A stretch of 64,000 nt of DNA from a virus, in the IMG/VR virus record IMGVR_UViG_3300028920_000005, positions 1-64,000 of that record; one strand, written 5' to 3'. Both the position numbers and the translations under genes were made by a program. This document shows positions 8,320 through 34,033 of the stretch, one piece after another. Numbering within the stretch: the first letter of the stretch is position 1; every line of letters begins with the position of its first letter. The notes under the pieces are model-generated. The model had not been told where the DNA came from. It was given only the letters and a program-made list of their open reading frames with translations, and searched no databases.

Positions 8320-8323
8320 AATT

Positions 8324-8732: not shown

Positions 8733-8747
8733 CTTATCACTCCTTAA

Positions 8748-10949: not shown

Positions 10950-11173
10950 TCCCTCACCACCTTAATCATTACGTACGCCCTCTTCACATCATCCGTCTTG
11001 CACCCAATAACCTTCCTCACCACTATATCCTTGTTCTGCCGAATGATACTTCTCACTGTTCCCTCCACCATCTCTAACTCCTCCGACAGTTCCTCATAGG
11101 TGTACGCCGTTCCTGCATTCTTCGTCAAGAAGTCAATTACCTTCTTTACATTTGTTTCATGTACTCCATTCAT
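10946..11173 (-). CDS. winged-helix DNA-binding protein
   Basis: 75 aa. KKVIDFLTKNAGTAYTYEELSEELEMVEGTVRSIIRQN resembles an HTH followed by a wing. Confidence 0.5.
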   Translation of the reverse strand: MNGVHETNVKKVIDFLTKNAGTAYTYEELSEELEMVEGTVRSIIRQNKDIVVRKVIGCKTDDVKRAYVMIKVVRE

Positions 11174-11243
11174 TTGTTATCACCTCCTCAACACTTCGTA
11201 AAGCGTCGAGCGTCATAAGTAACTATATTCGATTGTCTGATAA

Positions 11244-11819: not shown

Positions 11820-11852
11820 TCCTGATCGGTTCTTCTTCCGTACATAATTCTT

Positions 11853-12524: not shown

Positions 12525-12689
12525 TAATTCTTTTATCTTTAATATATATTCCTTTGTACCTTCTTCCAGTATACCATCCTCCTTATTTCTTATTCCGTAT
12601 TCCTCATTAATATTGTATATAGTTACAGCTTCCTACTTCAGTTATATTGTGTTCTGTCCGTTCCGTTATTATATTTTAAAAATTTAATA

Positions 12690-12736
12690 ATTTAATAATA
12701 TATATAAATAGGACATATATATATAATTTGTGGGAA
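12690..12736. promoter_or_regulatory. AT-rich TATA-like element, copy 1 of 2 (TAATAATATATAT...CATATATATAATTT)
   Basis: Near-duplicate of 14750-14797. Both copies lie upstream of a leftward gene and at the start of a rightward non-coding stretch. Confidence 0.4.
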
Positions 12737-13037
12737 CTTTCCGTCCGGGCACGTCGGATGAACATAGGAAACCCTTTGTTGGAATATGACGAAGAACCAA
12801 TGAAGTTTGATCGAAGCACAAAGTTGCTGAACTGAGGAACTGAGAATTTTGAGAACGTCTCGTTCCGTCACAATGTCAGAGGCGGGCGCCAACAAGTGTC
12901 TTCCGATGTTTTCCGAGTTCATCGCTCCGGGCATATGAAGTGCAGGTATAAGGGCACGCTTCATTGATTTCGGCCATTCGGCTCTCAAACTACAGTCCCC
13001 TTTAATACTCTCAAAATTCGGGTGTTTTCGGTTATTC

Positions 13038-13107
13038 CCGTATATGTGTGTCCTTCGGTATATGATCATGATCCGGTTTATGTTCATGGTTCGGTATATG
13101 TGCGTGG
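13038..13107. repeat. four degenerate tandem units with core CGGTATATG
   Basis: ccgtatatgtg, tcggtatatgatcatg, ccggtttatgttcatgg and ttcggtatatgtgcgtgg start near 13038, 13055, 13073 and 13090, a period of about 17 nt. Confidence 0.5.
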
Positions 13108-13578
13108 TTTTGGGCAAGGACATTGGGGCCTTGGACCTTCTCAGGCGCTCATATTTACCCCTGGACCCATTTTGTAAATGGTTTGTCTTTATTCCTTTGT
13201 TTTTTCGCGATTCGGTATGACGTTCGGCTCGTTTCATACTAATATCACGTATATAGGTAACCCTCGTTTACGCCCAAAAACGTATTTCTTCGTGGTTTAC
13301 ACAGTATGACGATCATCGATTCTTTCTCGATCACTAACTGGCTGCCCATCCACAAAAATACGACCGTATTCGTGGTGCCGTCCTTGATATCTAGGCGTTG
13401 TGCGTCGATTCATACCTATTTCGGGGTTTAATTTTGTATCGGTCGGTCCCTAACATAGGTGGACGTCTCCCATATATGGTTGTTATTGTGCGGCTTCAGG
13501 TCTTGGGCCGTAAGGGTCTACCCCAATTTTCATATATTCGGTTACTGGTTTGTGCGTCTGGCTTCAGTGTCTTGTGCA

Positions 13579-13977
13579 TCAGACTTCGATGTCTTGTGCG
13601 TCAGTCTTACTGTCAAGCGCATCGTCTTCAGGCCAATAGTAGTAAATGAGATCCCTCCCAGTTACTCGTGGCATGAGCTTTCGCGCAACCAGTCCTTTCC
13701 GTTCCATGGCATATAAGCTGGCGAACACTGTCGTTACCGGTATGTCCAGTTTCTCCGACAGCTCTTTCGCAGTCCAGGCCGTCCCGGGGTCGTTCTCAAG
13801 CAGTTCCCTTATAGCTTCTTGCCTTCGGTTGTTTCCATTATATTCTTCCACATCTTTCAAGTCCTTCGTATTAATGGGCATTTCATATCCCTCCAGAGTG
13901 ATGCGCACTTCCTTTCGGCCCCTCTCTACGGCCGTTCCTCCCACGTTCCTCCTATCTTCCTCTACAGTCGGTCCCAA
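13579..13977 (-). CDS. winged-helix (MarR/TrmB-like) DNA-binding protein
   Basis: WTAKELSEKLDIPVTTVFASLYAMERKGLVARK resembles an HTH plus wing. The track start is TTG. A better start is the ATG at 13881 (MPINTK...), preceded by GGAGGG. Confidence 0.55.
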   Translation of the reverse strand: MGPTVEEDRRNVGGTAVERGRKEVRITLEGYEMPINTKDLKDVEEYNGNNRRQEAIRELLENDPGTAWTAKELSEKLDIPVTTVFASLYAMERKGLVARKLMPRVTGRDLIYYYWPEDDALDSKTDAQDIEV

Positions 13978-14025
13978 TCCGTGTCTACCAATAGAACCCC
14001 TGGGCAGTCTTATTCTGCTCAGGTA

Positions 14026-14664
14026 CTATACCGTGCTGTATCTTGCTTCCATCTTCTTACGGTAATGTTCTTCAATCTTCTGTTTAGTCTCCGGCTGTAC
14101 CCAGACGAACTCCCCTTTCCATTCTCCATCTTTCCGGTTCTGTACGTACACCATCACGCGACTATCTTCTTCCAGTTCGTCGTGGAGTCTTTCACGTTCG
14201 CGTTCTTCTTTTGACTTCGGTTTACGTGCTTCGTAGGTACTGCGTCCTGTTGCCTCAAACTTATACCACAGTTTTCCCTCAGACTCGACGGTTTCAACGA
14301 TTCCAAGTTCATACATCAGTTTGAGTACTTTCGTGATCGGTGATACTGACGGCTTCATTAGTATCATCTTTATTTCGTATTTCGTGTACCACAGATCTCG
14401 GTGTTCTCTCAACAGGCTAAGGACTCCCATGAACGTTCTGTGTTGATCTGGCTTCAGACGTGTTACGCGCCTCCGACGTACCACCTTATACAACCAACCT
14501 TCTTCTTCGTTGAGTCTTGTATACGGCACTACGTCATACCTCGCATACTCTCGGTATGTAAATCCACAGTCCGCGCAACTCTGTTTCATTAAGTCCTGCT
14601 TTCTTCCTACTAAACACCTTGGGCATACTTCAAATATTCTATCAGACCTCCATCCGTTGTTCAT
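14026..14664 (-). CDS. zinc-ribbon plus winged-helix DNA-binding protein
   Basis: 212 aa. N-terminal CPRC...CADCG. Central MGVLSLLREHRDLWYTKYEI...KVLKLMYELGIVETVESEGKLWYK is wHTH-like. Basic/acidic tail. Confidence 0.55.
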   Translation of the reverse strand: MNNGWRSDRIFEVCPRCLVGRKQDLMKQSCADCGFTYREYARYDVVPYTRLNEEEGWLYKVVRRRRVTRLKPDQHRTFMGVLSLLREHRDLWYTKYEIKMILMKPSVSPITKVLKLMYELGIVETVESEGKLWYKFEATGRSTYEARKPKSKEERERERLHDELEEDSRVMVYVQNRKDGEWKGEFVWVQPETKQKIEEHYRKKMEARYSTV

Positions 14665-14749
14665 TGTTCTTCTTCCTTATTATTATTATTATTTAGCCTT
14701 CCTACTTCTTACTTTTTAAGTTCGTTCCTGTTCCTACTATTTTTTTTAA

Positions 14750-14797
14750 TTTTATAATATAATAATATATGGGAACCATATATATAATTTTTGGTGA
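14750..14797. promoter_or_regulatory. AT-rich TATA-like element, copy 2 of 2
   Basis: The strings taataatatat and catatatataattt are shared with 12690-12736. Confidence 0.4.
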
Positions 14798-15020
14798 AGA
14801 AGGATGGATGCCCTTAAGGGAGGAAGGGAAGAGGTAATGAATACTTGACCGAAGAACTATGAAGCAGAACGGCATAACATTTGAACAAAGGTTCTTTCCC
14901 ATAACATCCTAAACTCAACGGTCGGGCCTCAGCATAGTTTCTCCGATTGATTCTCAAGATTTCATAGCATTCTGTCACGGCCGTCGAACGGCGCTTCCGG
15001 GTCCAGTTCAGTGCTGTTGA

Positions 15021-15680
15021 GATCATCGGATTTCATCGGTTTTCATCTGAGCTCAGGGACCGGTCCCGGGATTCTATAGGGAGGCAAGCGAAGGCCACGG
15101 CCGTATGGCGAGTGCTGCGCAATGGGACTGACCCGGGTTCTCTGGGGAAGGGAGTAAGTGGGAATACTTATGGAACATGTGGGAACACTTAAGGACCTTT
15201 TGGGGGAACACTTAAGGACCTTTTGGAGGAACTTTGGGGCGAAGCCCTGGAAGGGACCGACTTTGGCGGACCAGCGGAACGTTTGGCGGAAGACCAGGAC
15301 CAGGCAGGACGGGTTGACGGATAGGTTGCCAGACCTGTCTCTGGCAACCTAAGGGCAAGATAGGTTGCCAGCCCTGTCATAGGCAAGATAGGTTGCCAGC
15401 CCTGTTAAGGGCAGGATGGGACATTCCAAAGGACCATCACCGGGAACTATGCCGGACAGTGCTGCGCCCTGACTGATGCGCTACCCTCTACGGACGGGCC
15501 CTCTAATGAACGTCGCGGACCGGTCCCGGCGGGGGCGTGAGTAATGCGCAAGACCATTCGGGGAATACTCTGAGGACATAATCACAAAGTTCCTGGACCG
15601 GTCCCGGGATTCTATATGGGACATGACGGCCGAGTGATGCGCGCCTGAGTGTTGCGCGCGGCTCTACGGACCGAACTCTG
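15021..15680. repeat. GC-rich non-coding block with several unrelated direct and inverted repeat families
   Basis: GGACCGGTCCCGG occurs three times (15057, 15517, 15595), and two copies extend to GGACCGGTCCCGGGATTCTATA. A 23-nt tandem GGGAACACTTAAGGACCTTTTGG occurs twice (15181-15226). ATAGGTTGCCAGNCCTGT occurs three times (15321, 15360, 15388). TCATCGGWTT occurs twice (15021-15049). ACTCTGAGGACAT occurs twice. GGACC occurs 10 times on the plus strand. Confidence 0.8.
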
Positions 15681-15717
15681 AGGACATTTTAGGAATAAAA
15701 AAATAAAATATTACAAT

Positions 15718-15848
15718 GTTACACTGTTACATATATTGTAATACTTGGAGTTACACTGTTACAATATGTGTAATACTGTTCTATCGTGTTACGCTGTTAC
15801 ACATATTGTAATACTGTAAAATTATACTATTACATATATTGTAATATT
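15718..15848. repeat. four ~28-nt iteron-like repeats (GTTACACTGTTACATATATTGTAATACT)
   Basis: Copies start at 15718, 15750, 15788 and 15821 (period 32-38 nt). Each contains inverted arms TTACA-N5-TGTAA. A fifth partial copy lies at about 16979-16999, beyond the two wHTH genes. Confidence 0.8.
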
Positions 15849-15853
15849 AAATT

Positions 15854-15926
15854 AAGTTACTTTGAATAGTGACAAAAAAATGTTACTTTCAATAGTGACA
15901 AATTAAGTTACTTTCAATAGTAACAA
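15854..15926. promoter_or_regulatory. three palindromic operator-like sites WWGTTAC-N8-GTRACAA
   Basis: Sites at 15854-15875, 15880-15901 and 15905-15926, spaced 25-26 bp centre to centre, with a conserved spacer TTTSAATA. Confidence 0.65.
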
Positions 15927-15992
15927 AAAAATAGGAATCATAAATTGATTTTGTACCCCATATATATTTACTAAATAAACTAATTAAAAAAA

Positions 15993-16024
15993 TACATTAA
16001 TGTATAATAAGATACATTAATGTA
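15993..16024. repeat. two copies of the perfect palindrome TACATTAATGTA
   Basis: 15993-16004 and 16013-16024, 20 bp apart, in AT-rich DNA. GATAACTT occurs twice at 16035-16053. Confidence 0.7.
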
Positions 16025-16251
16025 GATAAGTAATGATAACTTCTCGATAACTTATATATACTTTGCATGTTTTACTTAATATTACAATTGCATGAGTCGG
16101 GTTGTCCGCACTTCTTTAAGTGTTAAATTCCCTATCGGTAAAAAAAAGGACCGACTCACAAACGCAAAAAATGGTTAAGCAATTGTCCGAAAAAGAAGGG
16201 AATTATCGGAGGACAAACCTTTCAATCTACTAAAACATCGGAGGTAAAAAT

Positions 16252-16542
16252 ATGCCAAAAACGGACGAAGAGATTTTCAATGGGATTGACAGTGAATATT
16301 CAAGGGCTGGAAACAGTGAAGGACGAAAGGATGAGATAATAAAATACCTCAAAAAAATGAGGTCAACAGATCATCCAATAGCAACCATAGACGAAGTACA
16401 TTTGAAAATGTCCTTCAGTCACACCAAACGGCAGAATACATATTCTGCAATAATGGAATTGATCCGTGAAGGTAGAATACTCGGAAGGAAAAACGGAAAT
16501 GGTCATTGGATGGTATTCTATCCCGAAGGAAGCAAAAAATAA
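16252..16542 (+). CDS. winged-helix DNA-binding protein
   Basis: 96 aa; GGAGGT 7 nt upstream; YSAIMELIREGRILGRKNGNGHWMVFY is wHTH-like. The gene sits in an AT-rich island. Confidence 0.55.
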   Translation: MPKTDEEIFNGIDSEYSRAGNSEGRKDEIIKYLKKMRSTDHPIATIDEVHLKMSFSHTKRQNTYSAIMELIREGRILGRKNGNGHWMVFYPEGSKK

Positions 16543-22670: not shown

Positions 22671-23270
22671 ATGGACAGAATTGTTGTGGTGCAGGGTGAT
22701 ACGCCTGTATTTGAATTTACGATCCTTGACGCAAACGATAAGCCACTGGACTTGGGCCTCGTGTCCACGATAATTTTTAAGATGGCGAGGGTGGGAGAAG
22801 AGGATGGGCATGTGGCGGAAGTCTGTAGTATTTCTAATGTGCCCGGGACTGATGGAAAGTGTTACATAGGTCTGACGGCGGCGCAAACTGAAGATGATGG
22901 GGAGTATTTGGCCGAGGTAGAAATTCATATGAATACGGGCGAGATCCTTAGTCCGTTGCAGTTTACCGTTGGCATTGTGAATGAGGTCGATGAACCTAAA
23001 CTTGATACACCTGTTGTTGTGGATTTGGTTACGCCTAATGTGACTGGCGATTATCAGGTGGCATGGTCTACTGTTGATGATGCAACGAGTTATGTGTTGG
23101 AAGAAGATGATGGTACGGGGTGGTCGACAGTGTACAGCGGCCCCAACACATATTATGATGTGACTGGGAATACTGATGGCAGTTATTTTTATAGGGTTAC
23201 TGCGACAGCATCATATCATAAGAATTCGGACGTAAGCGATGTTGTAGGAATAACGGTGGATATTCCGTGA
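22671..23270 (+). CDS. Ig-like / fibronectin type III-like domain protein
   Basis: 199 aa. The N-terminal domain resembles 35072..35482. The C-terminal YQVAWSTVDDATSYVLEEDDGTGWSTVYSGPNTYYDVTGNTDGSYFYRVTA is FN3-like. Confidence 0.5.
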   Translation: MDRIVVVQGDTPVFEFTILDANDKPLDLGLVSTIIFKMARVGEEDGHVAEVCSISNVPGTDGKCYIGLTAAQTEDDGEYLAEVEIHMNTGEILSPLQFTVGIVNEVDEPKLDTPVVVDLVTPNVTGDYQVAWSTVDDATSYVLEEDDGTGWSTVYSGPNTYYDVTGNTDGSYFYRVTATASYHKNSDVSDVVGITVDIP

Positions 23271-24799
23271 ACTTGATTGGGCAATTAAGGAATGAATTAG
23301 AAGCAATGGAAGATGTTGTAGTATATACTCGGCAGATTTTGGGCATCGATTGGTTGTTTGAAAGACAGTGGAAAGTGCTTAAAGAGTTTTATAATAAGAG
23401 TCCAGATACAGGCCGAATGATTTTTAAAGATATGGTTTTATGTTGGGGGATGCGTAGTGGTAAGACAACGGAAGCTTCGATTATCGCCACATATGAGGGA
23501 TTTAAGCTTATACAAATGGGCACACCTTGTGCACATTATGGGTTACCGGCAGGGACAGAGATTTTCATCATCAATGTGGCTACTTCTGACAGGCAGGCGA
23601 AAGACACTGTGTTTGCACATATTAAAGCGAGATTCGAATATTCCAGATGGTGGAAGAACCAGAAAAAGATTGAAAGACATAACGAAATTGTCTTTCCCGT
23701 TCAGGATGGGAAGATTATATTTAGAAGTGAACATTCAAACTCTGCGTCGTTAGCGGGGAAGAATGTGATTTGTAGCGTTTTCGATGAGATGGCAAGATTC
23801 AAGCAAACTGGTGGAGTGGCTAGCGCCGAGATGGTGTATGATACCTTATCTCGTGGTGCGAAGACATTTAAGAAGGATGGTAAGCGGATTGCGATAAGTA
23901 GTCCTGTGTTGGTGGATGATTTCTTTTATGGCGAATTATATATGAAGGGCAAGAATGAACCTCAAGTTTATGTTGATCATGGTGCAACGTGGGAAGTTAA
24001 TGATACAATTGGAATGGAGGATCTTGAAGATGAATTCAGAAGGAACCCTGAGACAGCTATGCGAGACTATGGTGCAATCCCAAGTCATGCCATTGAGCGG
24101 TACTTTAGAGAATTTAATCGTATAGAGTTGTTGGAGAGAGGTACTCCGAATCCTAGAGTGACATTTGCGGAGCACAAGTTAGAGGATAATAGTATTGAGA
24201 TGTTGTGTGATATTAAGAATGTTGATGGGACGGATTGGAAAGGACAGCAAGGCATAATATATCATTCGGCCGGAGATCCTGCTGTGAAGAATGATGTATT
24301 TGGCTTTGCGTTAGGGCATAAGAGTCCAACTGGTATGCTCATGTGTGATTTGATATTTACGTTTGGGCATGATGATATGGGTAAGGATAACGATGGTAAG
24401 CAGATTAAAGAAGTTGATGCGAGGAAGGTTAAGGCCCTGGTGTTGGAGCTGAGGAAGAGATGTTTGTTGGCATGTTTTGTTACAGATATCTGGAACTTTC
24501 CTGAGACACTCCAGGAGATTAGGCGAAACGGAATTGAGGTAAGGCAAAATACTGTTGGCAAAAGGGAGTATGACCATTTCAAGGAGAAAGGGTATTTGGG
24601 AGAAGTGGATTTGCCGACTAATGCTTTGGTCTTGCATGAATTTGAGAATTTGGAAGTAATCAATCAGACGAAGGTCGAGCATCCGAGGACTGGGAGCAAG
24701 GACACTTCAGATGCGGTCGTGAACATGTTTTATAGCTTCCAGGAAAAGAGTAAGGCAATACGTGAGGAACCCGTAGCAGTATCTGTAGTGGTGGTATAA
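23267..24799 (+). CDS. terL: terminase large subunit
   Basis: 510 aa. Walker A CWGMRSGKTTEAS, Walker B VICSVFDEMARF, and a C-terminal nuclease-like block HSAGDPAVKNDVFGFALGH. Confidence 0.85.
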   Translation: MNLIGQLRNELEAMEDVVVYTRQILGIDWLFERQWKVLKEFYNKSPDTGRMIFKDMVLCWGMRSGKTTEASIIATYEGFKLIQMGTPCAHYGLPAGTEIFIINVATSDRQAKDTVFAHIKARFEYSRWWKNQKKIERHNEIVFPVQDGKIIFRSEHSNSASLAGKNVICSVFDEMARFKQTGGVASAEMVYDTLSRGAKTFKKDGKRIAISSPVLVDDFFYGELYMKGKNEPQVYVDHGATWEVNDTIGMEDLEDEFRRNPETAMRDYGAIPSHAIERYFREFNRIELLERGTPNPRVTFAEHKLEDNSIEMLCDIKNVDGTDWKGQQGIIYHSAGDPAVKNDVFGFALGHKSPTGMLMCDLIFTFGHDDMGKDNDGKQIKEVDARKVKALVLELRKRCLLACFVTDIWNFPETLQEIRRNGIEVRQNTVGKREYDHFKEKGYLGEVDLPTNALVLHEFENLEVINQTKVEHPRTGSKDTSDAVVNMFYSFQEKSKAIREEPVAVSVVVV

Positions 24800-26188
24800 A
24801 TGGGCATGTTTTCGAGAAAAGAGAAAGGCACAGAGGACAGCGAAATAATGCCTATGGGTAAGGCAATTAAAGAGGTGGGGCTTAGCGCAGGTGGGTCTGT
24901 GAATTGGGATTTCGAATCAATGTTCACGGACGGCGCTGGATGGCCACATGGTATTCACGATGAGATGGATGCGTACAAGAAGGTGGGGTTGGTAAGGACA
25001 TGTATTAATGTGAGAAGTTATTATACTCGCCGAGATGGGTATGAGGTGAAGGTTGAGCCTTATGATGCAGAGTTGAAGTCGTTTATAGATGATATGAATT
25101 TTAAGGTGAATTTGGGTAGGACGTCTGACGTATCTTTGACTAAGCGGCAGATCTTTGGCCGATGCGGTTGGGAGATTGTTTGGGGTGAGGTGGTTGTTGA
25201 TGGGCAGACGGTTAGGGGCATCGATTCGTTGTTGCAGTTGAAGAGTAAGGCGATTAAGCCGAAGTTCGATGATAATGAGCCCCAGAAGTTACTTTATTAT
25301 GATTATGCTGAAGCGACAAATGGAAGGTTGGATCCGAGGCAGGCTTTATACTTTGAGTTAGATTCACTGGATAGGGACAAAGTGGGTATATCAGGGGTGG
25401 ATAGCGTTAAGGATAGTGTGAATGCGAGGGTGAATTTGAATAGGGACCTGTTGGAAAGTTCTAAGAGGCTTTGGGCGCCGTTCGGGATGTTTAAGATGAA
25501 TACGGAGCAGTGGTTGGATCCTGCTGTGAAGAAGACAAAGATGGAGGAGTTTGCCAGGAGTATAATTCCTGGGAGGACTATTGTTTATAATACGGCAATT
25601 GAGGATAGCAAAGTTGTGGATCTTCAGCCGAATTTGATAAACTTGATTAGGTCGCTTGAGAAGGTGGATGAGGACATTATGGGCTTTTGGATGATACCAA
25701 AGGAGATACTTGCTAGGGGCAAAACTGTTAATAAAGCGACATTGACTGATGCCATGGAGGCCCTGTATGTTGGTCCCGTGAATGCGGATCAGTCGTACAT
25801 GAAGGAAGAGTTGGAGAAGCAGTGGTATCCTAAATTGGTTGCTATCTGGAAGCAAGCACACCCTGATAAGGCCAATAAGGTTTACAAGGTTCAGCATATA
25901 TGGAAGACGCAGAGATTCTTGGATCCGGCGCTAGTGAGGGCGTTTGCCTATGCGGTCAGAAATAAGGTCATGACGAGTAAGGCCTTTTTCGAGATTCTCC
26001 ATATCCCGATTGAAGAGGGATATATCCCTGAGACTGCGGCAGCACCAACTAAGGCGCAGCAGGCTAAGGGCGAATTGGAGGCGTTGATAGAGGAGGCTGT
26101 GGAGTTGGAATGGGGGGATTTGGCCGCGGCACAAAACAATACGCCTTCGTTGGGTGTGGAGGATGGAGCTAATGTGGAGGAAATTTAG
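24800..26188 (+). CDS. portal protein
   Basis: 462 aa, immediately downstream of TerL (stop/start abut). Size and position are typical. No specific motif verified. Confidence 0.6.
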   Translation: MGMFSRKEKGTEDSEIMPMGKAIKEVGLSAGGSVNWDFESMFTDGAGWPHGIHDEMDAYKKVGLVRTCINVRSYYTRRDGYEVKVEPYDAELKSFIDDMNFKVNLGRTSDVSLTKRQIFGRCGWEIVWGEVVVDGQTVRGIDSLLQLKSKAIKPKFDDNEPQKLLYYDYAEATNGRLDPRQALYFELDSLDRDKVGISGVDSVKDSVNARVNLNRDLLESSKRLWAPFGMFKMNTEQWLDPAVKKTKMEEFARSIIPGRTIVYNTAIEDSKVVDLQPNLINLIRSLEKVDEDIMGFWMIPKEILARGKTVNKATLTDAMEALYVGPVNADQSYMKEELEKQWYPKLVAIWKQAHPDKANKVYKVQHIWKTQRFLDPALVRAFAYAVRNKVMTSKAFFEILHIPIEEGYIPETAAAPTKAQQAKGELEALIEEAVELEWGDLAAAQNNTPSLGVEDGANVEEI

Positions 26189-26253: not shown

Positions 26254-28185
26254 ATGCCATTTTATAAAGGTGCACAGAAGTTATTCCCTGATATGAGTTT
26301 AAAGAGCCTTGCGCCACTGTGCAGGGAATTGCATATGGCCTGGGGGATTTGGCGTAGGCACGAGAAGTATACAGATAGTAAAGGTAATTCTTGGAGTAAG
26401 GAAGATTTCTATAACTTTTGGCGAAGTTTAAATTACAATCTCAAACAGAAAGGCGGCACAGGGTGTGTGATGTTGAAAGGGATGCCTACCAGTTTGACTT
26501 GTGTGAGTTGTTCGGAGCAAGAGCAGAAGGACCTTGAGAGTTTGTATAAGGGCATAGAGAGAGACTTCCCGTCTATGTCCTTGGAAAGATTGGCAAGGTT
26601 CTGTTTGGTGTTGCATATGGGATGGGGCACGTATCGTCAGTTTAAGAATTTTACTGATGTTAAAGGCAATGAATGGAAGGTAGAAGATTTCAGGAGAGTG
26701 CATAAAGTGCTTGATGAACAGATGAAGAAGAAAGGGGGAAAAGGTTGTAAGCCTTTTAACCCATTCGATGAACCAGCGACTAAAAGAGAGACGCCGTCAT
26801 ATCCTAGAGCGTCAAGCATGTCACGTTCGGGCAAATGTCAGGCACTTGTACTAAAGAATGGAAGATTAGCAACAATGGAGGATTATGATGAGATCTGTTT
26901 CTGCGACGGAACCTGTGTTGATATGGACAGTCGAAATTTCGAGGCAACCAGGCTCGAGTTGGATGGTCACGGGGCGAATCGCCTGTTGACGAGGGATGCG
27001 ACACCTGAGTTGAAGAAGGCGTGGCTTAGTGAGGGCGTGGATGTTAGATATGTGGATGAGGAACTTGAGCAGATGAATGCGTTAGATGATAGTGAGATGC
27101 CGATTAAGTTCTTTTTGGTTGGCGCCGAGAGGAGGGAGATTTCGAAGCTCGCCGATGGAGTGATGCTGAATGCCGTTCAAATCAAACAGGCAAAACAACT
27201 TGAGCCATGGAGGTCTGAGTTTAGAGGACAGATTATGTTGGATAATGGTATCTTTGGGGATACCTTACTTAATGTGGATGAGCTTGTCGGTAGGGTTCAC
27301 TCCGTTATGCCTGATATTGCTGTCGGCCCCGATGTGTTGTATGATCGCGATATCCATATTAAGTCGCTCAAACGACAGAAGGAGTTTCTCAGTAAGAAGT
27401 TGCCCAAAGAAGTAAGTGTGATGCTTGTGCCTCAGGGCAATACCTGTTTGGAGTTTGAGTGGTGTACGAAGCAGATACTGAAGATGAAGCCCGAGGTGAT
27501 AGGGTTAGGGAGAATGAGCATGAAGGTTGCTGGTTACCCTGGAAGGGGGCATAAGCAGCGGATTTATGCACTTAAGCGGTTGCAGGATTTGGGGATATTG
27601 GACGAGATTAAGAGTGAGGGGATCAGGATGCATGCCCTTGGGCTAAGCAAGCCGTGGGAGTTGCCTTACTTGAATAAGTTTGGATTTTATAGCATTGACT
27701 CCATGAGTTATATTTATAGCTCACTGTACAATCAGCTTGCGATGCCGGGTGATCCGACAGAGATGAGTTTCTCTGTGGTGAATGGACAGGTGAAGCAGAC
27801 CAGGAATATCGAAGATGATGTACATAGTAGAAGGGCGCAGTTTGTAAAGGAGTATCCACATAGTGGGAGTCTTGATGCGAGGCAATGGTGGATTGTGCAG
27901 AATGTGTGGAAGCCTATGAGTAAGATGAAGGCAACTGATTATCACATTATGAATTCGGTCAGGGACCTAAAGTTCGAAGACCGTGATGATAAGCCTATGT
28001 TGGAGAAGCCCACGAAAGAGGGCCTGTCGCATAAGGTATATCAGACGTTGCAAAATGACCAAGCCAGTGTGGGAGTTCCTGATGTGGATGCGATGGATGT
28101 TGCAAAGTTGAGTGACCGAGAGCTCCATCATTTACATCATTTGATGCATGTGGCCTGGAAACAGAAGGGCGCTGGAGGTGAGTAG
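26254..28185 (+). CDS. dpdA: DpdA/TGT-like transglycosylase fused to a duplicated N-terminal domain
   Basis: 643 aa. Residues about 290-560 carry, in TGT order, IMLDNGIFGD, VGPDVLYD, LVPQGNT, IGLGRMS, MHALGLSKP and YSIDSMSY. The N-terminus has two ~70-aa repeats (FPDMSLKSLAPLCRELHMAWGIW...KGNSWSKEDF...KQKGGTGC and FPSMSLERLARFCLVLHMGWGTY...KGNEWKVEDF...KKKGGKGC). Confidence 0.6.
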   Translation: MPFYKGAQKLFPDMSLKSLAPLCRELHMAWGIWRRHEKYTDSKGNSWSKEDFYNFWRSLNYNLKQKGGTGCVMLKGMPTSLTCVSCSEQEQKDLESLYKGIERDFPSMSLERLARFCLVLHMGWGTYRQFKNFTDVKGNEWKVEDFRRVHKVLDEQMKKKGGKGCKPFNPFDEPATKRETPSYPRASSMSRSGKCQALVLKNGRLATMEDYDEICFCDGTCVDMDSRNFEATRLELDGHGANRLLTRDATPELKKAWLSEGVDVRYVDEELEQMNALDDSEMPIKFFLVGAERREISKLADGVMLNAVQIKQAKQLEPWRSEFRGQIMLDNGIFGDTLLNVDELVGRVHSVMPDIAVGPDVLYDRDIHIKSLKRQKEFLSKKLPKEVSVMLVPQGNTCLEFEWCTKQILKMKPEVIGLGRMSMKVAGYPGRGHKQRIYALKRLQDLGILDEIKSEGIRMHALGLSKPWELPYLNKFGFYSIDSMSYIYSSLYNQLAMPGDPTEMSFSVVNGQVKQTRNIEDDVHSRRAQFVKEYPHSGSLDARQWWIVQNVWKPMSKMKATDYHIMNSVRDLKFEDRDDKPMLEKPTKEGLSHKVYQTLQNDQASVGVPDVDAMDVAKLSDRELHHLHHLMHVAWKQKGAGGE

Positions 28186-31100
28186 ATGAAAGTATTGCTG
28201 ATGTGGGAACATGCAAAAGCCCTTGCGAAAGAATTCAAGAGGGCCGGGCACGACGTCACCTTGATAAAGGACGAGAGCAGCTTTGGCCCTGATGAGAGGT
28301 TCGATGTTGTGTGGATCAGTCCACCTTGTTCTGGGCTGTCGAAGGCCGGGGCCTGGAAGCATTGGGACATTGAGGAGGATGTAAGGTATACTCCGATGAC
28401 GGCCGAAGCGAAGAGGACTACGAAGTTGCTTAAGGATGCCGTTGACTTTGTGAAGAAGTGTGGTGCCAAAGTTTGGTATATTGAGTTGCCTATGGGGTTG
28501 GCTAGGAAGTTTAGTTTTATGAAGGCGTTGCCTAGGAAGAATACGACGTTGTGTCAGTATGGGTTGGAGTTTCGCAAGGAGACTGACATTTGGACAAATG
28601 CCAAAGGTGAATTTTTGGAGTCTTGTGATCCTGGTGATGGGTGCCATAAGCCGCAGCCACGTGGGGTCAAGAAGAGTGGCAAAAACGCTGGGATCAATAC
28701 CAAATGGGCAGATAAGAGGGCGGTGCTGCCTTTGGAATTTTGCAAGGCGGTCGTTACCATGAGTGAGAAGACAATAGGTCGCGGCGAACTGATGAGTGTG
28801 AACTTGAGCCCTGATGAGGTCGTTAGGTGGCATGAGAGTATTGTTAGTGAGTTGGCGCGCCGGGGGCTAAGTGACCATGATACGCCGTTAGGGAATGATA
28901 ATAAGAGTAACTATCAGCAGCCTGCGCAGTCTGGTGTGGTTAGTGGGCCTGAGGTGACTTTGCAAGAAGTGCTTGGGTATTTTGGTGAGGCGAAGATAGG
29001 TAAGGGCCTTGTGATGTTAACCGGTGGGATCGTGAATAATGGCAAAAGTGTAAATGATATTGACATTCTTATTCGTATGGAAAAGGATGATCCGTTGTCT
29101 GTGCCTATACAGTTTAGGATCCTGAGAATGTTTCCCGAGCATTTGAGAGATAGGATACAGTTTATATTCAGTGATAGTGGCGGACAGCCCTTTACTTCTC
29201 ATATCCCGCTGTATGATGTGGATATGAAGTTGCAGAGCCCGTTGAAGAAAGTGGAGATGAGTAGGAAGGAATTGGAGGAGAGCGTCCAGAGGAGGAGTTT
29301 GCCTCCGAGTCGCGACGGGAAGTGTCCACCTGGGTATAAGTTAAAGGATGGCAAGTGTGTGTGGATGGAGGAAGCGAGTGAAGGGGGAGAGGTGGAAGAG
29401 TTAGAGAATAAGGAGGTTGATCTACAGAGTGTGCGGTGGCCTAAAGAAGAAGAGGCCCATCCTTTCGTGATGCAGATACATTTTAGGGGTGAGAGCGCGC
29501 ACCATGACTTTAGGGCCAAAACCAATGGGGAGTTGGAAGGGTGGAGTGTGTTTAGTCAGCCTGCAGGTCAGGTCAACGAGGATGTGAGTAATGAGGCCCA
29601 GGCGCAAGCGATAATTGCGAAGGTCGATTGGAAATGGCCTAAAGAAGAAGTACATGCTGAGGCGAGGCCTAAGACAGTGCAGCCTGCTGAATGGTTAAAA
29701 GTGTCTGGACACTTTGACCCTGGCCAGATTGGCGCGGGAAAGGACGTGGCTGGATTTATGCAGATAGTGGATCAGGGCAATGTTGAGTTTGGTGCTAGGA
29801 AGACTTGGTTTTATGAGTATTTTCTGCATGGGGCGAAGACTAAGGGCCGATTGGTGTTTAGGTATATTCCTAGGCAGAGGTCCACTAGTATTGCAGCGGC
29901 CGAGGAGTTGGCTCTTTGGGATTGGAACTGGGTTAAGTTCACAAGGGATATGTCCGAGAAGAAAGAGTTGAGTGAGGTGCCCAAGACACTTATGGAGTAT
30001 TATAATAAGCATAAGGGTGTGAATTCTGCCTACCAGGTAATGAGATATGCGAAGAAGAATGGGCTGACTGAGTTGGCAGAGACCTTTGAACAGCGCTTCA
30101 TGGAACATCAAAAGAGGGGGCAATCTTTTACCTACTCTGAAGAGTTACTGGAAGAACAGATTTCTGAGGCCGACACTAGTGACCTCCGAGACGTCTATAT
30201 GCGCATCTTTGATGTTATGGATAATAAAGGCCAAAAAGTGCTTCAAGACGACCTAGCGGTCTTTATTGACGTCCTCGAAGATGAATTGCTCGGGAGAGGG
30301 GCCTTACAGGATAGGAGGAGTGCAGGGTATTGGACCACGTGGTTGGCCAAGAGTGAGACTCCGTATGTGTTGACTCGAGCTGCAGTTAATGAGGAATGGA
30401 TACCGCCTTATGGGGTTAGTGCCTTGCCCAAAGAGGTAAGAGATAAGGTCCCTGAGAAGTATCAGTATTGGAAATTTAGCTCTAGGCAGCAGAGGCTAAA
30501 GGTAAGGGATGAGTTGCGAAAGGCAAAGGATGTTAAGCTTCATATTCGTAACTCTTATGATGAGAATCATCATGTAGTGGAGCATGAGGGCACAACATAT
30601 TTGGCCACTACTCTTTCGAAACCGGAATCTGAGGACATTACCTTCGCCGACGTTGAAGTGATGTGTAAGGTGGATTTGTCAGAACATGAGTATGTGTTGT
30701 TGCATCATTTTTGGAAAGGGCAACAGGTCGTGAGGGTTGGGCCAACTACGCAGCACTGGGATTTATTTATAGGCGATAATATGTGGGTCTTGGACACTGA
30801 TCCTTTGAAAAGTGCCTCGAATGCAAGTAGGCGTAGGCCTTATTCGAAGGGGTTTCAGGAGAGGGGTGCTAGTGGGCCTGAGTTCATTGAGCCCGGCACA
30901 CCTGGAAACCCGACCAAGAGTACGGCCGCATGGGTAACTAGAGTTGATAAGGGCAGTGTGCATATGCTCGAGGACGATGCACATTTTAAGAAGTTTAATT
31001 TGTCTGGCGGGAAGTTGAAAGGAACCTTTGTCCTGAAGCAAGAAGAACCGACTGTTAATTTGTGGAGGTTTGGCAAAGATCATGGGAGTAAGGCCCTATC

Positions 31101-31548
31101 GAAGGGAAATGTGGTGAAGCAGTATATTACGATGAGTACTGGCAAATCATATGAGAGGGATGGAAAGTTGTATGTTCCCGGCGATGCGCTGAGCTATGGC
31201 GTTTGGAACGGGGATTTCTATCCACCGGAGGTTATTGCAGATAGGCCTGAAAGGTTGAAGAGTAAAGCCACTAGTATTGTTTCACATAGGAACCGGAACA
31301 ACTATGGGAGTGTCGTTGAATTGAACTTTGACGAAAGCACTTCGACCATACACATAGTGGGCGAATTCGAGGGGGAGGAAGCCATAGAGAGGATCAAACA
31401 GGGCGACCTAATCGGCTATTCGGTCGAAGTCACTGTTGAAGTGGATGAGGACAGGCACATTGTGAAAAAGATATTGGACTACGACCGTGTTGTTCTGGTT
31501 CCTGACCCAGCCTGTGAGGTGTGCACAGTTGACGGTGTCTGCAATTAG
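28186..31548 (+). CDS. multi-domain polyprotein: C5-MTase-like + minimal nucleotidyltransferase + two LigD 3'-phosphoesterase-like domains + HK97-family prohead protease
   Basis: 1120 aa. Residues 1-195: DVVWISPPCSGLSKAG (motif IV PC), WYIELPMG, CQYGLEFRKETDIWTN, with no FxGxG motif I. Residues 270-345: LTGGIVNNGKSVNDIDILIR...IQFIFSD. Residues 425-565: FVMQIHFRGESAHHDFRAKTNGELEGWSV...GQIGAGKD...FLHGAKTKGRLVF. Residues 835-960: LLHHFWKG...QHWDLFIG...LSGGKLKGTFVL. Residues 985-1120: SHRNRNNYG...LIGYSVEV...VVLVPDPACEV. Confidence 0.65.
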   Translation: MKVLLMWEHAKALAKEFKRAGHDVTLIKDESSFGPDERFDVVWISPPCSGLSKAGAWKHWDIEEDVRYTPMTAEAKRTTKLLKDAVDFVKKCGAKVWYIELPMGLARKFSFMKALPRKNTTLCQYGLEFRKETDIWTNAKGEFLESCDPGDGCHKPQPRGVKKSGKNAGINTKWADKRAVLPLEFCKAVVTMSEKTIGRGELMSVNLSPDEVVRWHESIVSELARRGLSDHDTPLGNDNKSNYQQPAQSGVVSGPEVTLQEVLGYFGEAKIGKGLVMLTGGIVNNGKSVNDIDILIRMEKDDPLSVPIQFRILRMFPEHLRDRIQFIFSDSGGQPFTSHIPLYDVDMKLQSPLKKVEMSRKELEESVQRRSLPPSRDGKCPPGYKLKDGKCVWMEEASEGGEVEELENKEVDLQSVRWPKEEEAHPFVMQIHFRGESAHHDFRAKTNGELEGWSVFSQPAGQVNEDVSNEAQAQAIIAKVDWKWPKEEVHAEARPKTVQPAEWLKVSGHFDPGQIGAGKDVAGFMQIVDQGNVEFGARKTWFYEYFLHGAKTKGRLVFRYIPRQRSTSIAAAEELALWDWNWVKFTRDMSEKKELSEVPKTLMEYYNKHKGVNSAYQVMRYAKKNGLTELAETFEQRFMEHQKRGQSFTYSEELLEEQISEADTSDLRDVYMRIFDVMDNKGQKVLQDDLAVFIDVLEDELLGRGALQDRRSAGYWTTWLAKSETPYVLTRAAVNEEWIPPYGVSALPKEVRDKVPEKYQYWKFSSRQQRLKVRDELRKAKDVKLHIRNSYDENHHVVEHEGTTYLATTLSKPESEDITFADVEVMCKVDLSEHEYVLLHHFWKGQQVVRVGPTTQHWDLFIGDNMWVLDTDPLKSASNASRRRPYSKGFQERGASGPEFIEPGTPGNPTKSTAAWVTRVDKGSVHMLEDDAHFKKFNLSGGKLKGTFVLKQEEPTVNLWRFGKDHGSKALSKGNVVKQYITMSTGKSYERDGKLYVPGDALSYGVWNGDFYPPEVIADRPERLKSKATSIVSHRNRNNYGSVVELNFDESTSTIHIVGEFEGEEAIERIKQGDLIGYSVEVTVEVDEDRHIVKKILDYDRVVLVPDPACEVCTVDGVCN

Positions 31549-32095
31549 TTTGGAACTGCTTGAAGGCATGGTTTGCGGCATTACGGTGTCACAACGGGCA
31601 AAGGCCCAATTGGGCATACGCGCACACCCTTGGGCCGAGGTGCGGTGCGAAAGACCGGACCTTTTAGAGACCCTACAAGTTGAGTTGCTGGCGTTATCGA
31701 TTGGTTCCACAACATTGGGAACGCCAACCGATAAGCTTCGCATCCAGGGCATCAACAACTGTTCTTTGCTCACGCCCTACGTCCCAGAGAAATATGCCTG
31801 GTGGAATGAAGCAATGACCTTATTCGATGCAGGTGAGCATCGGACAAAAAACGGCCTATTAAAAATCCTACAGCTTCGCCCTGGCGAGCGGCTGCCTAAG
31901 AATCTGTGTTTCCTAAATGATTGAGAGACACAAACCCCAGGTCTGTGCCTCTCGTGGTTTTGGGTAAGACACTCAAACGCAGTATCATTATATAAAGAGA
32001 TTGGACTGTCGAACATTCCTCATACTACAGTCCACCTCCAGATTTTTCCCTCCCATTGGACTTTATATAGTCATAATGGATTCTTATGAATAGGT

Positions 32096-32794
32096 GTGAA
32101 ACCTATGCCTGAAGGAACAGAATTGGAGGAGAACGTCGAATTAGAAGACGTGTACCCTCCCGAAGGCGATAAAGCCGCACCTAAGGACAAAGCTCCTGAA
32201 CCACCTAAGCCGAAGGAGAAAAAGCAGGAAGACATGCCGGCTGACAAGCCCATGAAAGTTCCTGCCGCGAAGCTGGAAACTGTGATTCTGATTCCCAAGG
32301 GATATCAGGGTCAGTATCCTGTTGCACAGGCAGCCAATGAGCAGATGTTGTCACAGCAGGAAGAGATTTCCAAGCTTAAGGAACAGGTTCAGGCGTTGAG
32401 TAAGGCGGTGGAGGAGAAGGATAACAAGATCAGCGAGTTGTCCAAAAACATCAGTGAAAGGGAGACCGCAGACAGGACCGAGGTCGCGTCTGAGGTTGTT
32501 GAACTGAAACTGTCATCTGGGATAATGGCCCTTGACGAGAACGAGGAGAAAGCCAAAACCCAGAAGGACGCAGCTGTGAAAGAACTTTCCAAGCTCCCCA
32601 TCGAACAGCTCAAGACCCTGAGGACTGAGGTCAAGACACTGAGCAAAAAGCCAGAAGGATCTTCAGCATCGTCTGCTGAGGTTTTCACCCCTGGCATTGC
32701 CCAGCATAAAGACCTTAGTAACTCTGAGGTAAGGAAGGCAGAACTCCGTAAAAAGATGTTCGGCCATTCCAAGCCCTTAGGTGAGGAGGAGTGA
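32096..32794 (+). CDS. scaffolding protein
   Basis: 232 aa, acidic, K/E/A-rich coiled coil, lying between the protease and capsid genes. Confidence 0.55.
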   Translation: MKPMPEGTELEENVELEDVYPPEGDKAAPKDKAPEPPKPKEKKQEDMPADKPMKVPAAKLETVILIPKGYQGQYPVAQAANEQMLSQQEEISKLKEQVQALSKAVEEKDNKISELSKNISERETADRTEVASEVVELKLSSGIMALDENEEKAKTQKDAAVKELSKLPIEQLKTLRTEVKTLSKKPEGSSASSAEVFTPGIAQHKDLSNSEVRKAELRKKMFGHSKPLGEEE

Positions 32795-32798
32795 TAAA

Positions 32799-33203
32799 AT
32801 GGCAGCTGGAGATATAATCAGATCTGTCGAGACCGTCGTAGAGCAGCAGCTGGGGAAAACCACGACTGCAATCACGAAGGGTTTAGTGTTAGTGTATGAC
32901 ACTGACGGTTTGAATACCGCCGGTGCCGATGCACCTGGGCCGCACTATATGGCTTACGAAGACCATGCCGCACCTACGGCTGGTCAGACTGAGTTTAGTG
33001 CAGTGAAGAGGGGATGGGTGGTATTTGCAAAAGCTGCAGGTGCCGCTGTGACCCCGAACGCGTATGTCAAGTCTGACGCGAACGGCAAAATAGTCGATTT
33101 CATCCCTGGAACCGACCTTGCCGAGGAGATCGTTGGATACTCTGACAAGGACGGGGCCGCGTCCGCAGCCACAGAAGTGAAAGTGTTCCTTGGAGGACGG
33201 TGA
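32799..33203 (+). CDS. head decoration / capsid-associated protein
   Basis: The ATG at 32799 follows GAGGAGGAG. 134 aa, Ala/Gly-rich, immediately upstream of the major capsid gene. Confidence 0.4.
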   Translation: MAAGDIIRSVETVVEQQLGKTTTAITKGLVLVYDTDGLNTAGADAPGPHYMAYEDHAAPTAGQTEFSAVKRGWVVFAKAAGAAVTPNAYVKSDANGKIVDFIPGTDLAEEIVGYSDKDGAASAATEVKVFLGGR

Positions 33204-33208
33204 GTTAA

Positions 33209-34033
33209 ATGGGTAAGATTCTCGTTGACTCTGATATTCCGGATGCACTGCTCGCTGAGACTGTCGTCGAGGAAATGCTGGGCTTAGCCCGCCAGAAGTA
33301 TACCCTGAGGCAATTCTGCCGTGTGATCAACTTTGGTCAGACGATCACCGGTAAGATACCCATTGGGACAACGCTGACTGGTCAGGAAAAGGTCAAGCCC
33401 CTCGTCGAAGCAGAGCTAGCCGCTGAGGCATACACTGAACTGGACTTCAATCTGTGGAAGAATGTCGTACACATCCTGGTACCGAAGGAGACGCAGCTCA
33501 AATCCAACATTGATCTCATGAAGATGAATGTTGAGGATGGATCCAAGGATTTGGCTCGCATGGAGAACAAGCAGATCTCTGAGGAGATTGCTACGTTCAC
33601 CGGTATTGGGGCAACTGCAACCTGGGATAATACCACTGGTGGGAATCCACTGGAGGATATAGCCGCTGCACAGAATGCTGTGGCAAACCTGGGTTATCTG
33701 CCCAAGGATGTGGTCATGCAGACAGACGTTTACCGATACTTCTCGGTGAACGACTACGTTGTAGCTGCCTATGAGCGTGGGGCCACCGTGAAAACGGGGC
33801 ACATACCCGCGGTCATGGGTCTGAATATCAGCGTAGAATATGCACTGGCTGCAAAGACAGCTTTCGTGGTGGATAAGGCAGCGCCTGCAATGGTTCTTGC
33901 CGATGGTCCTAACCTTGTGGAGCGGTACAAGAAGCCCGCCGTGTTCGCCGATGGATATGTTTCGGCCCAGTTTCTGGAGCCGAAGAAGGCCCTCGACGAT
34001 GCTGCAAGGCAGTTGACTGCGTGCATACCATAA
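33209..34033 (+). CDS. major capsid protein (HK97 fold)
   Basis: 274 aa. Position after protease, scaffold and decoration genes. Sequence style typical of small HK97-like capsid proteins (..LWKNVVHILVPKE..., ...GYVSAQFLEP...). Confidence 0.7.
   Translation: MGKILVDSDIPDALLAETVVEEMLGLARQKYTLRQFCRVINFGQTITGKIPIGTTLTGQEKVKPLVEAELAAEAYTELDFNLWKNVVHILVPKETQLKSNIDLMKMNVEDGSKDLARMENKQISEEIATFTGIGATATWDNTTGGNPLEDIAAAQNAVANLGYLPKDVVMQTDVYRYFSVNDYVVAAYERGATVKTGHIPAVMGLNISVEYALAAKTAFVVDKAAPAMVLADGPNLVERYKKPAVFADGYVSAQFLEPKKALDDAARQLTACIP

Follow-up and report, generated by a model that had tools for sequence, protein, structure and literature searches.

A viral head-module protein that joins LigD-phosphoesterase-like and other enzyme-like domains to a C-terminal capsid-maturation protease

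Introduction

The prohead proteases of HK97, T4, and the herpesviruses are built into the procapsid during its assembly and are activated inside it; in herpesviruses, the protease comes in as part of a longer precursor, from which it releases itself by autoproteolysis. Other proteins (the internal proteins and Alt of T4, MuF-fused toxins, and the virion RNA polymerase of N4) are synthesized late, packed into the head, and expelled with the DNA, so that they are the first to act in the next host; the T4 internal proteins and Alt carry a capsid-targeting sequence that is trimmed by the gp21 prohead protease. Here we describe ORF1120, an open reading frame (ORF) of 1120 codons in a 64,000-nucleotide stretch of viral DNA (positions 1 to 64,000 of IMG/VR record IMGVR_UViG_3300028920_000005; ‘the window’), the product of which joins four enzyme-like domains to a predicted C-terminal capsid-maturation (prohead) protease. 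We propose, with moderate confidence, that the fused enzymes enter the head with the protease, are freed there, and that some of them are delivered with the DNA to heal or protect the genome.

Proteins of related design, the polyvalent proteins with C-terminal assemblin-like peptidases, have been described in phages and conjugative elements (Iyer et al., 2017, J Bacteriol, PMC5512222). ORF1120 falls within the definition used there, that is, unrelated domains in one chain, head genes as neighbors, and an assemblin-like peptidase at the C-terminus.

Results

ORF1120 is an intact reading frame with five domains

ORF1120 runs on the plus strand from ATG to stop with zero internal stops, and the strong Shine-Dalgarno (SD) sequence before its ATG, GGAGGTGA, indicates that it is translated independently. 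A public contig of 89,216 bp encodes an identical 1120-residue protein, a separate assembly contains a relative of 65% identity with the same layout, and independent assemblies include collinear relatives of 30–65% identity; a frameshift or misassembly artefact is therefore unlikely. That the exact protein occurs on one contig only would fit separate genes having been joined by an error of assembly or sequencing; however, the frame is open across all 1120 codons, and the collinear fused proteins come from independent assemblies, with dozens more among the representative proteins that we searched (a profile search of 1.84 billion representatives gave 321 relatives of the protease domain at E ≤ 1e-3), so we regard such an artefact as extremely improbable. 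An earlier note on this DNA, made from the letters alone, had described an uninterrupted 1120-residue ORF with five domains; the ORF is as described, and every motif quoted in that note is present (PPC at residues 46–48, LTGG..NDIDILI at 278–296, FIFSD at 326–330, FVMQIHFRGESAHHDFR at 427–443, HHFWKG..HWDLFI at 840–862, SH at 1033–1034, GYSVE at 1077–1081, and PACEVC at 1108–1113).

Segment boundaries were set by BLAST and hidden Markov model (HMM) comparison with relatives. The segments are as follows (NTase, nucleotidyltransferase; PE, phosphoesterase):

28174-28181, plus strand: SD-like GGAGGTGA, 4 nt 5' of the ORF1120 ATG, read from the sequence
28186..31548, plus strand: ORF1120, the whole 1120-residue polyprotein, stop codon included
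28186..28800, plus strand: C5-cytosine-methyltransferase-like (MTase-like) domain, residues 1–205; Cys48 (PPC) and Glu100 kept
28948..29274, plus strand: NTase-like domain, residues 255–363; G280-G281 and D291-I-D293 (alignments A5 and A9)
29275..29442, plus strand: unique 56-residue linker, residues 364–419; no BLAST match in any relative
29443..29895, plus strand: PE1, LigD 3'-phosphoesterase-like domain, residues 420–570; H432, H439, D441, and R443 kept
29896..30282, plus strand: lineage-specific insert of ~130 residues, residues 571–699; common only to the closest relative
30283..30555, plus strand: conserved linker, residues 700–790, WIPPxGxSALPxxxRxKxPxxYxYW; between PE1 and PE2 in all relatives
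30667..31089, plus strand: PE2, second PE-fold domain, residues 828–968; H840/H841, H857, and D859 kept, Phe861 at the Arg site
31108..31545, plus strand: predicted capsid-maturation (prohead) serine protease, residues 975–1120; His1034 and Ser1079 invariant, clade-specific PAC..C tail

Two of these segments, the insert (571–699) and the family-wide conserved linker (700–790), had no place in the earlier description. When ORF1120 is compared with its nearest relative (P0002), the domains are 54–84% identical and two variable segments (the 200–262 linker and the 565–700 insert) only 26–43%, which argues that each domain is under selection; the 700–790 linker is 65% identical, and the 365–425 linker has no counterpart. 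A HEPN_AbiV match in the 571–699 insert (E = 0.053), the sole family match there, was taken as chance.

A predicted capsid-maturation protease at the C-terminus

The assignment of the C-terminal domain (residues 975–1120) as a prohead/capsid-maturation serine protease of the assemblin fold, proposed earlier from motifs, is firmly supported by its predicted structure. An AlphaFold2 (AF2) model from a 56-sequence alignment has a mean predicted local distance difference test score (pLDDT) of 92 and a predicted template modeling score (pTM) of 0.84. The first match of this model in a Foldseek search of the PDB is the T4 gp21 prohead protease (5jbl; E = 3.6e-5, probability 1.0, TM 0.67), followed by the proteases of human cytomegalovirus (HCMV), pseudorabies virus (PRV), herpes simplex virus 1 (HSV-1), and varicella-zoster virus (VZV). 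Among the predicted viral structures in BFVD, 78 match at E ≤ 1e-3, and most of these are named as prohead, HK97-family, or COG3740 protease; one is a haloarchaeal tailed virus protein. A first AF2 model, from seven sequences, had a pLDDT of 62 and gave only noise in Foldseek, so it was replaced by the 56-sequence model.

His1034 and Ser1079 are invariant in alignments of 6, 56, and 90 sequences, and alignment places them with the NH, S, and E.SLV..PA (EISLV..PA) motifs of a Pfam Peptidase_S78 protein from a neighboring clade, encoded by a related contig (L011); the protease-family HMM matches that protein with E = 9e-9, with the His and Ser aligned. Members of the family also match the PHROG families ‘head maturation protease’ and ‘major head and protease protein’ over the protease region. 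Pfam and PDB-sequence searches, using single sequences as well as 6- and 56-sequence profiles, gave no protease-domain match; in Pfam, neither the domain nor the five closest relatives match Peptidase_S78/S80 (one member matches Peptidase_S21 at E = 0.28). The link to curated protease families is thus transitive, that is, via the PHROG-matching members and the S78-annotated neighbor. In the domain-wise profile and structure searches as a whole, the protease was recovered by its fold, and the cutoffs of PF13298 (LigD_N), PF00145 (DNA_methylase), and S78/S80 were not reached.

The C-terminal tail of the domain has a motif, PAC..C, that is near-invariant in the family alignment (A7; P and the first Cys invariant, the Ala and the second Cys at least 90%). 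In the window, the C-terminus (31507-31545, residues 1108–1120) has a third Cys in addition and reads PACEVCTVDGVCN. The Peptidase_S78 protein of L011 lacks the motif, and the AF2 model is disordered at the tail. The tail may be a metal-binding, disulfide, or capsid-targeting element. A Met codon at 31143 was considered as an internal start for the protease alone and not adopted; it is preceded by only a weak purine-rich stretch.

Two putative LigD-phosphoesterase-like domains

The presence of two LigD-PE-like domains, which the earlier note had read as two copies, is supported at a sub-threshold level. PE1 matches Pfam LigD_N (PF13298) with E = 0.005 (17.4 bits; cutoff 31.1 not reached) and TIGR02777 with E = 0.0012 (18.6 bits; cutoff 144 not reached), and two relatives give similarly weak LigD-PE matches at the same position. 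When profiles are compared with the PDB, PE folds are the best matches of both domains, and these are marginal: 3p43 (E = 0.026), then 3p4h and 3n9b for PE1 (nine sequences), and 3p43 (E = 7.8e-4 over 114 residues), then 3p4h for PE2. Profile–profile alignment of PE1 with PE2 (hhalign) gives a probability of 79%.

We take the LigD-PE active-site set to be His42, His48, Asp50, Arg52, His84, and Tyr88 (Pseudomonas aeruginosa numbering). In PE1, the motif Q-x-H432-x-R-G-x3-H439-x-D441-x-R443 is invariant (alignment A3). PE2 differs from the copy that had been envisaged in that the active-site Arg is missing. This is the rule in the family: among protease-adjacent PE2 domains, H..HxD is present in 38 of the 45 clusters and Arg or Lys in only 3. 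Because H..HxD is so widely kept and Arg or Lys so rare, PE2 is better described as a conserved, distinct branch of the LigD-PE fold than simply as a dead copy, and as such it is a lead for enzymology. The motif HHWWKG...EH[WY]DL[FY]I is strikingly conserved in the PE2 domains of PE2-protease clusters.

ORF1120 belongs to a family that normally carries a DNA ligase

The usual layout of the family, at the same position in the head module, is NTase-like / ATP-dependent DNA ligase / PE1 / PE2 / protease, a context that was missing from the earlier note. In the nearest relatives, a PF01068 ATP-dependent DNA ligase domain, with matches that include LigD-type non-homologous end joining (NHEJ) ligase models, lies between the NTase-like domain and PE1; it is present in P0002–P0012 and in most of the larger fused relatives. 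The window has its unique 56-residue linker in place of this domain of ~350 residues. Judged from these comparisons, ORF1120 is a ligase-less member of the family that lost the ligase and gained the MTase-like domain.

We used local HMMs for a census of architectures among the 152 best representatives of the protease family:

Protease only: 86 clusters, many of which look like protease-scaffold or protease-MCP (major capsid protein) fusions
PE2-protease: 23 clusters
PE1-protease: 7 clusters
NTase-ligase-PE1-PE2-protease: 10 clusters
MTase-NTase-PE1-PE2-protease: 1 cluster, the window

The remainder comprises many variants, with one further ligase-less cluster (P0016). A PE-type domain is N-terminal to the protease in ~50 of these 152 best representative clusters, mostly directly adjacent. 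PE2-protease, the commonest fused architecture (P0018–P0068), usually has 170–380 uncharacterized residues at its N-terminus. The additional N-terminal modules of relatives include a DpdA-like region, pyrimidine-dimer glycosylase, PAPS-reductase-like domains, DUF6884, and a second ligase.

Some relatives encode the same domains as separate genes, an arrangement that the earlier note had suggested looking for. In contig L005, an NTase-ligase-PE-PE protein is followed by a separate 398-residue protease gene and then by the MCP gene. Contig L011 (60 kb; JGI 3300033156, labeled Candidatus Helarchaeota) encodes, at 8001-16489, the portal, a stand-alone NTase-like protein, four further ORFs, a 1034-residue ligase-PE1-PE2 protein, and the Peptidase_S78 protein. 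These two arrangements imply that the repair-like module belongs to the head module, whether fused or not. In two protease-less relatives, L001 (ANMV-1; 5868-9368) and L006 (3612-7097), the NTase-ligase-PE-PE protein is followed by an uncharacterized one of ~1160 residues, for which no protease-family match was obtained.

Because the domains also occur as separate genes, their physical linkage is not obligatory; in the window itself, the DpdA-like part is separate. Both facts would suit a polyprotein that is only a co-expression device, that is, one that is cleaved in cis in the cytoplasm, so that the enzymes act late on replicating DNA and only the protease enters the capsid. Prohead proteases of the HK97 and T4 types are, however, active only after procapsid assembly. 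Furthermore, the fusion is kept in dozens of 50%-identity clusters, which suggests that the linkage itself is selected, and the protease is always C-terminal, as in the published head-targeted polyvalent proteins (PMC5512222). We therefore give the co-expression explanation only a small chance, and we retain delivery into the head as the preferred one.

The N-terminal methyltransferase-like and nucleotidyltransferase-like domains

Sequence comparisons support residues 1–205 as a C5-MTase-like, but degenerate, domain. This segment matches PHROG 757 (‘DNA methyltransferase’) with E = 4e-12, and tblastn aligns it with phage ‘C-5 cytosine methylase I’ genes (~210–220 residues) with E down to about 1e-21; its Pfam DNA_methylase (PF00145) score is 12.8 bits, below the cutoff of 22, and a profile search of the PDB gave nothing significant. 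One of the phage C-5 methylase I genes, Bcp1 gp133, has C5-MTases as its top PDB matches at E = 0.3–0.7 only. In alignment A8, the motif IV PPC cysteine (Cys48) is kept; in motif VI, Glu100 is kept and ENV/ENP has become ELP (IELP). After a motif VIII-like block the domain stops, near residue 205, and it has neither a target-recognition domain nor motifs IX–X; the homologous phage proteins are similarly short, at ~210 residues. A stand-alone ORF of the same small family is found in L005 (5823-6470; A8 model, E = 4.7e-9), which indicates that the module moves between fused and free states.

The NTase-like domain has the signature hG[GS]-x9-13-Dh[DE]h; in 15 sequences, G280, D291, and I292 are invariant and G281 and D293 nearly so, and the third carboxylate (D330) is not conserved. 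The domain is kept in every relative, and stand-alone homologs exist, including the one that adjoins the portal gene in L011; a third homolog search with the domain still linked it to no known NTase. The assignment to the Pol-beta type is thus a motif-based one: the GG..DID signature given in the earlier note stands, and relevant support from Pfam or PDB sequences was not obtained.

The head module and its neighboring genes

ORF1120 lies between the portal and MCP genes, inside a tailed-virus head module:

23267..24799, plus strand: terminase large subunit (TerL); PHROG terminase large subunit, E = 3e-16
24800..26188, plus strand: portal protein; Pfam Phage_portal, E = 5.9e-5, below cutoff
26254..28185, plus strand: 643-residue ORF, weakly DpdA/TGT-like; PADLOC DpdA, E = 0.009
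31487..31924, plus strand: conserved 145-residue ORF that overlaps the 3' end of the polyprotein gene; position shared with relatives
32096..32794, plus strand: 232-residue ORF, candidate scaffolding protein; synteny and a weak phrog_3671 match
32781..33203, plus strand: 140-residue ORF; position of the Phage_cement_2 decoration protein of relatives
33209..34033, plus strand: MCP, HK97 fold, 274 residues; PHROG 1650 ‘major head protein’, E = 5e-10; weak Pfam Phage_capsid and Phage_cap_E

The same order (TerL, portal, a small or DpdA-like ORF, polyprotein, two ORFs, the cement-position ORF, MCP, and tail genes) is found in three independent contigs. The portal-position genes of relatives carry PF04860; the ORF in the overlapping position 3' of the polyprotein has 133–138 residues in L002 and L010 and 228 residues in L004; the two ORFs between polyprotein and cement position have 138 + 239, 228 + 167, or 133 + 232 residues; and the cement-position ORF matches Phage_cement_2 in L002 and L004. 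In a fused relative (P0061), phrog_3671 is also found after the protease domain. No protease domain beyond that of ORF1120 was detected in the 64-kb window.

A gene in the head-morphogenesis module, fused to the one enzyme that is known to reside in procapsids, might also be expected if the domains act in or at the procapsid during assembly and packaging (nick healing and end processing) and are then degraded or expelled, with no delivery. Prohead proteases normally digest themselves and exit the head, and a DpdA-like DNA-modifying domain, which is on the same chain in one relative (P0003; see below), makes more sense on progeny DNA. The closed procapsid, however, has no obvious supply of ATP, SAM (S-adenosylmethionine), or preQ0, and nick sealing before packaging is normally cytoplasmic. 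We consider this packaging-only explanation unlikely, and again prefer loading into the head followed by delivery of some of the modules.

The window has an intergenic gap at 31925-32095 within an otherwise tightly packed operon. This gap, 5' of the 232-residue ORF, contains TATATAAAG (~31991) and TTTATATA (~32064), which resemble archaeal TATA boxes; they suggest an internal promoter for the scaffold, cement, and MCP genes. No tRNA genes are present in the window. Its strands are extremely biased in composition: GC skew is −0.58 to −0.45 at 1–12 kb and −0.37 to −0.41 at 56–64 kb, and it is +0.17 to +0.37 over 16–52 kb; the sign of the skew tracks the direction of the genes (at 1–14.7 and 53–64 kb the long ORFs lie on the minus strand, and at 17–50 kb almost all lie on the plus strand), with G about twice as frequent as C in the coding strand.

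The upstream DpdA-like gene and the origin of the two-gene arrangement

The earlier note had placed ORF1120 after the portal and a DpdA-like gene; the gene order is as stated, and the likeness to DpdA is weak. The PADLOC match of the 643-residue ORF (E = 0.009) is far below the cutoff, the corresponding region of P0003 gives E = 0.0027, and Pfam, PDB, and NCBIfam searches of the ORF gave no match.

P0003 (1652 residues) is a single chain in which the DpdA-like region is fused to NTase-ligase-PE1-PE2-protease. Residues 98–634 of the 643-residue ORF align with residues 4–510 of P0003 (45% identity), and residues 208–263 of ORF1120 align with residues 523–575. In the window, the 643-residue ORF is in the frame of ORF1120, with only a TAG (28183-28185) between the two, and the MTase-like domain, after the TAG, the SD sequence, and the ATG, falls exactly at the P0003 junction. 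The arrangement in the window therefore resembles a single chain of the P0003 type that an MTase-like cassette has split; alternatively, P0003 may have lost such a cassette and become fused. Readthrough of the TAG was considered and set aside: it is unneeded, since a strong SD sequence and ATG follow, and in L010 the two genes overlap instead.

A short helical module, ..H..W......W..ED....H..h..E...RG..H..P., is present in two copies at the start of the 643-residue ORF (26254-26760, residues 1–165), and it recurs before the NTase-like domain in ORF1120 (28800-28950) and in most relatives, perhaps as an adaptor or linker that is used repeatedly.

A probably archaeal host

The host of the virus is probably archaeal, as judged from several sequence hints. 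The TerL proteins of relatives match the MJ0330_N family; L011 is the contig labeled as Helarchaeota; and the TTTATATA box precedes the 232-residue ORF. Outside the MTase-like domain, the phage collection gave matches to one virus only, ANMV-1 of uncultured archaea: a megablast search with 12 kb had no match there, and tblastn of PE2 and the protease gave ANMV-1 only, so that the collection contains no cultured relative with proteomics.

Discussion

We favor, with moderate confidence as stated above, a role in which ORF1120 carries enzymes into the head. The protease must be built into the procapsid to act, and the N-terminal domains, being fused to it, would enter as co-assembled cargo. The protease (Ser1079/His1034) would then cut both the chain and the scaffold, thereby freeing the enzyme modules inside the head; at least some of these would be retained in the virion and exit with the DNA on infection, to act before viral gene expression, by healing 3' ends (PE1), sealing (the ligase, in relatives), or otherwise protecting the incoming genome. 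ORF1120 would thus be a polyvalent protein in which the maturation protease itself serves as both head anchor and processing enzyme. We infer packaging into the virion, the cleavage sites, and ejection of the modules by analogy.

Several observations weigh against this role. In the MTase-like domain, motif I (LFAGTRS in the phage homologs) has become LMWEHAK, as the earlier note had seen, and the loss goes further than was then supposed: a 12-residue gap spans the phage SVEWD segment of the motif II region, with a 6-residue gap downstream. With motif I and the motif II region lost and ENV changed to ELP, SAM-dependent methylation by ORF1120 is doubtful. The NTase-like domain had no PDB match with 11- or 15-sequence profiles, and in Pfam the only match among 11 members was DNA_pol_B_palm, in one member, with E = 0.014. 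No ORF of the 64-kb window matches a ligase HMM built from the relatives. At the sites of LigD His84 and Tyr88, PE1 has Gln499 (Glu in other relatives) and Trp503; PE2 keeps H840/H841, H857, and D859 and has Phe861 at the Arg position. Given the loss of the ligase, the SAM motifs, and canonical PE residues, the cargo may be partly or wholly inactive. In addition, a precursor of 125 kDa at the usual copy number of a protease would fill much of the procapsid, and because it would crowd the procapsid it might need to be removed before DNA entry. Finally, a reading of the linkers for a conserved cleavage motif found none that was convincing. An ‘LS..E’-like string, which lies close to or at several domain boundaries and precedes the protease in many relatives, was considered as a shared cleavage motif and dropped, because it has low information, is not shared by P0001 and P0002, and reads LSKGN in the window.

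Much of this would also follow if the enzyme domains were decaying remnants that serve, without catalysis, as bulk core- or scaffold-like filler on the protease: the ligase is lost in ORF1120 and also in P0016, the SAM-binding motifs are gone, PE1 and PE2 each lack one or two canonical LigD-PE residues, and the NTase-like domain matches no known enzyme profile. However, the putative metal ligands of the PE domains, the GG..DxD of the NTase-like domain, and Cys48/Glu100 are conserved among relatives at 30–65% identity, and a separate 232-residue scaffold candidate is present. We judge the filler explanation to be rather improbable, and the loading of the fused domains through the protease remains our preferred one.

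A broader reading, which we offer only tentatively, is that probably archaeal tailed viruses load a LigD-like end-repair kit by fusion to the protease and eject it with the genome to heal, seal, or circularize the incoming DNA. The kit would comprise the ligase, two PE-fold domains, the NTase-like domain, and lineage-specific DpdA-, methyltransferase-, or glycosylase-like modules, with PE2-protease as the conserved loading core; virion-borne end-joining would be a first-minute counter-defense against host nucleases. Should the fused domains indeed be taken into the head, the family would be the first case that we found of virion-carried DNA-repair enzymes (ligase and 3'-phosphoesterase), and the maturation protease would be a natural cargo-loading tag, of practical interest for the loading of enzymes into HK97-fold shells.

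The protease domain itself is closest to known proteins. HK97 gp4/Peptidase_S78 and T4 gp21/S80 (5jbl) share with ORF1120 the fold, the His and Ser, an E.SLV..PA-type strand, and the portal–MCP position; they differ in that ORF1120 has ~970 N-terminal, enzyme-like residues (prohead proteases have 150–250 residues or are protease-scaffold or protease-MCP fusions), a clade-specific PAC..C tail, and a protease domain that alone scores below every Pfam threshold. The herpesvirus pUL26-type assemblin also has the same fold; however, its protease is N-terminal and its partner is scaffold, whereas the protease of ORF1120 is C-terminal and its partners are enzyme-like domains. The ejected cargoes of T4, MuF systems, and N4 are targeted by a short capsid-targeting sequence or by a MuF/portal-associated fusion, whereas the putative cargo of ORF1120 is on the protease itself.

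As for the cargo, the relatives of ORF1120 resemble bacterial LigD (PE-LIG-POL) in joining an ATP-dependent ligase with a PE fold with H..HxDxR. The family differs from LigD in that it has a small NTase-like domain and no archaeo-eukaryotic primase (AEP) polymerase domain, and in its context, a virus head module; as compared with LigD and stand-alone archaeal PE proteins (PDB entries for the two together: 3n9b, 3p43, and 3p4h), the PE scores of ORF1120 are far below cutoffs, and the copy in the window has no ligase. Our literature search found nothing on a LigD-PE or DNA ligase that is fused to, or packaged with, a capsid protease; in the ANME-1 virome paper, ligase is never named and the two mentions of ‘protease’ are ordinary capsid-maturation protease genes.

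The polyvalent proteins (PMC5512222) are like ORF1120 in having several unrelated nucleic-acid-modifying domains, DNA methylase-like domains included, in genes that adjoin those for head morphogenesis, and in having an assemblin-like peptidase at the extreme C-terminus that is predicted to process the chain in virion assembly. The design principle (a polyvalent protein with a C-terminal peptidase) is thus already published, so the earlier note's remark that the domain combination was not recognizable from described phage head proteins holds only in part: in the text of PMC5512222, ‘DNA ligase’ is never named and ‘phosphoesterase’ refers to other domains, chiefly 2H, that is, the ligase/LigD-PE module is not in that paper. 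The same paper describes polyvalent proteins as scarce in archaea, with those of >1000 residues almost all bacterial, whereas the ORF1120 family looks archaeal-viral; if true, the polyvalent-protein concept extends to archaeal viruses, from which it was reported to be nearly absent. Furthermore, the peptidase of ORF1120 is also the sole maturation protease detected in its head module. What is unpublished in the ORF1120 family is, therefore, its LigD-like cargo, its core of PE2 and protease, its setting in archaeal viruses, and the role of the peptidase as the sole detected maturation protease.

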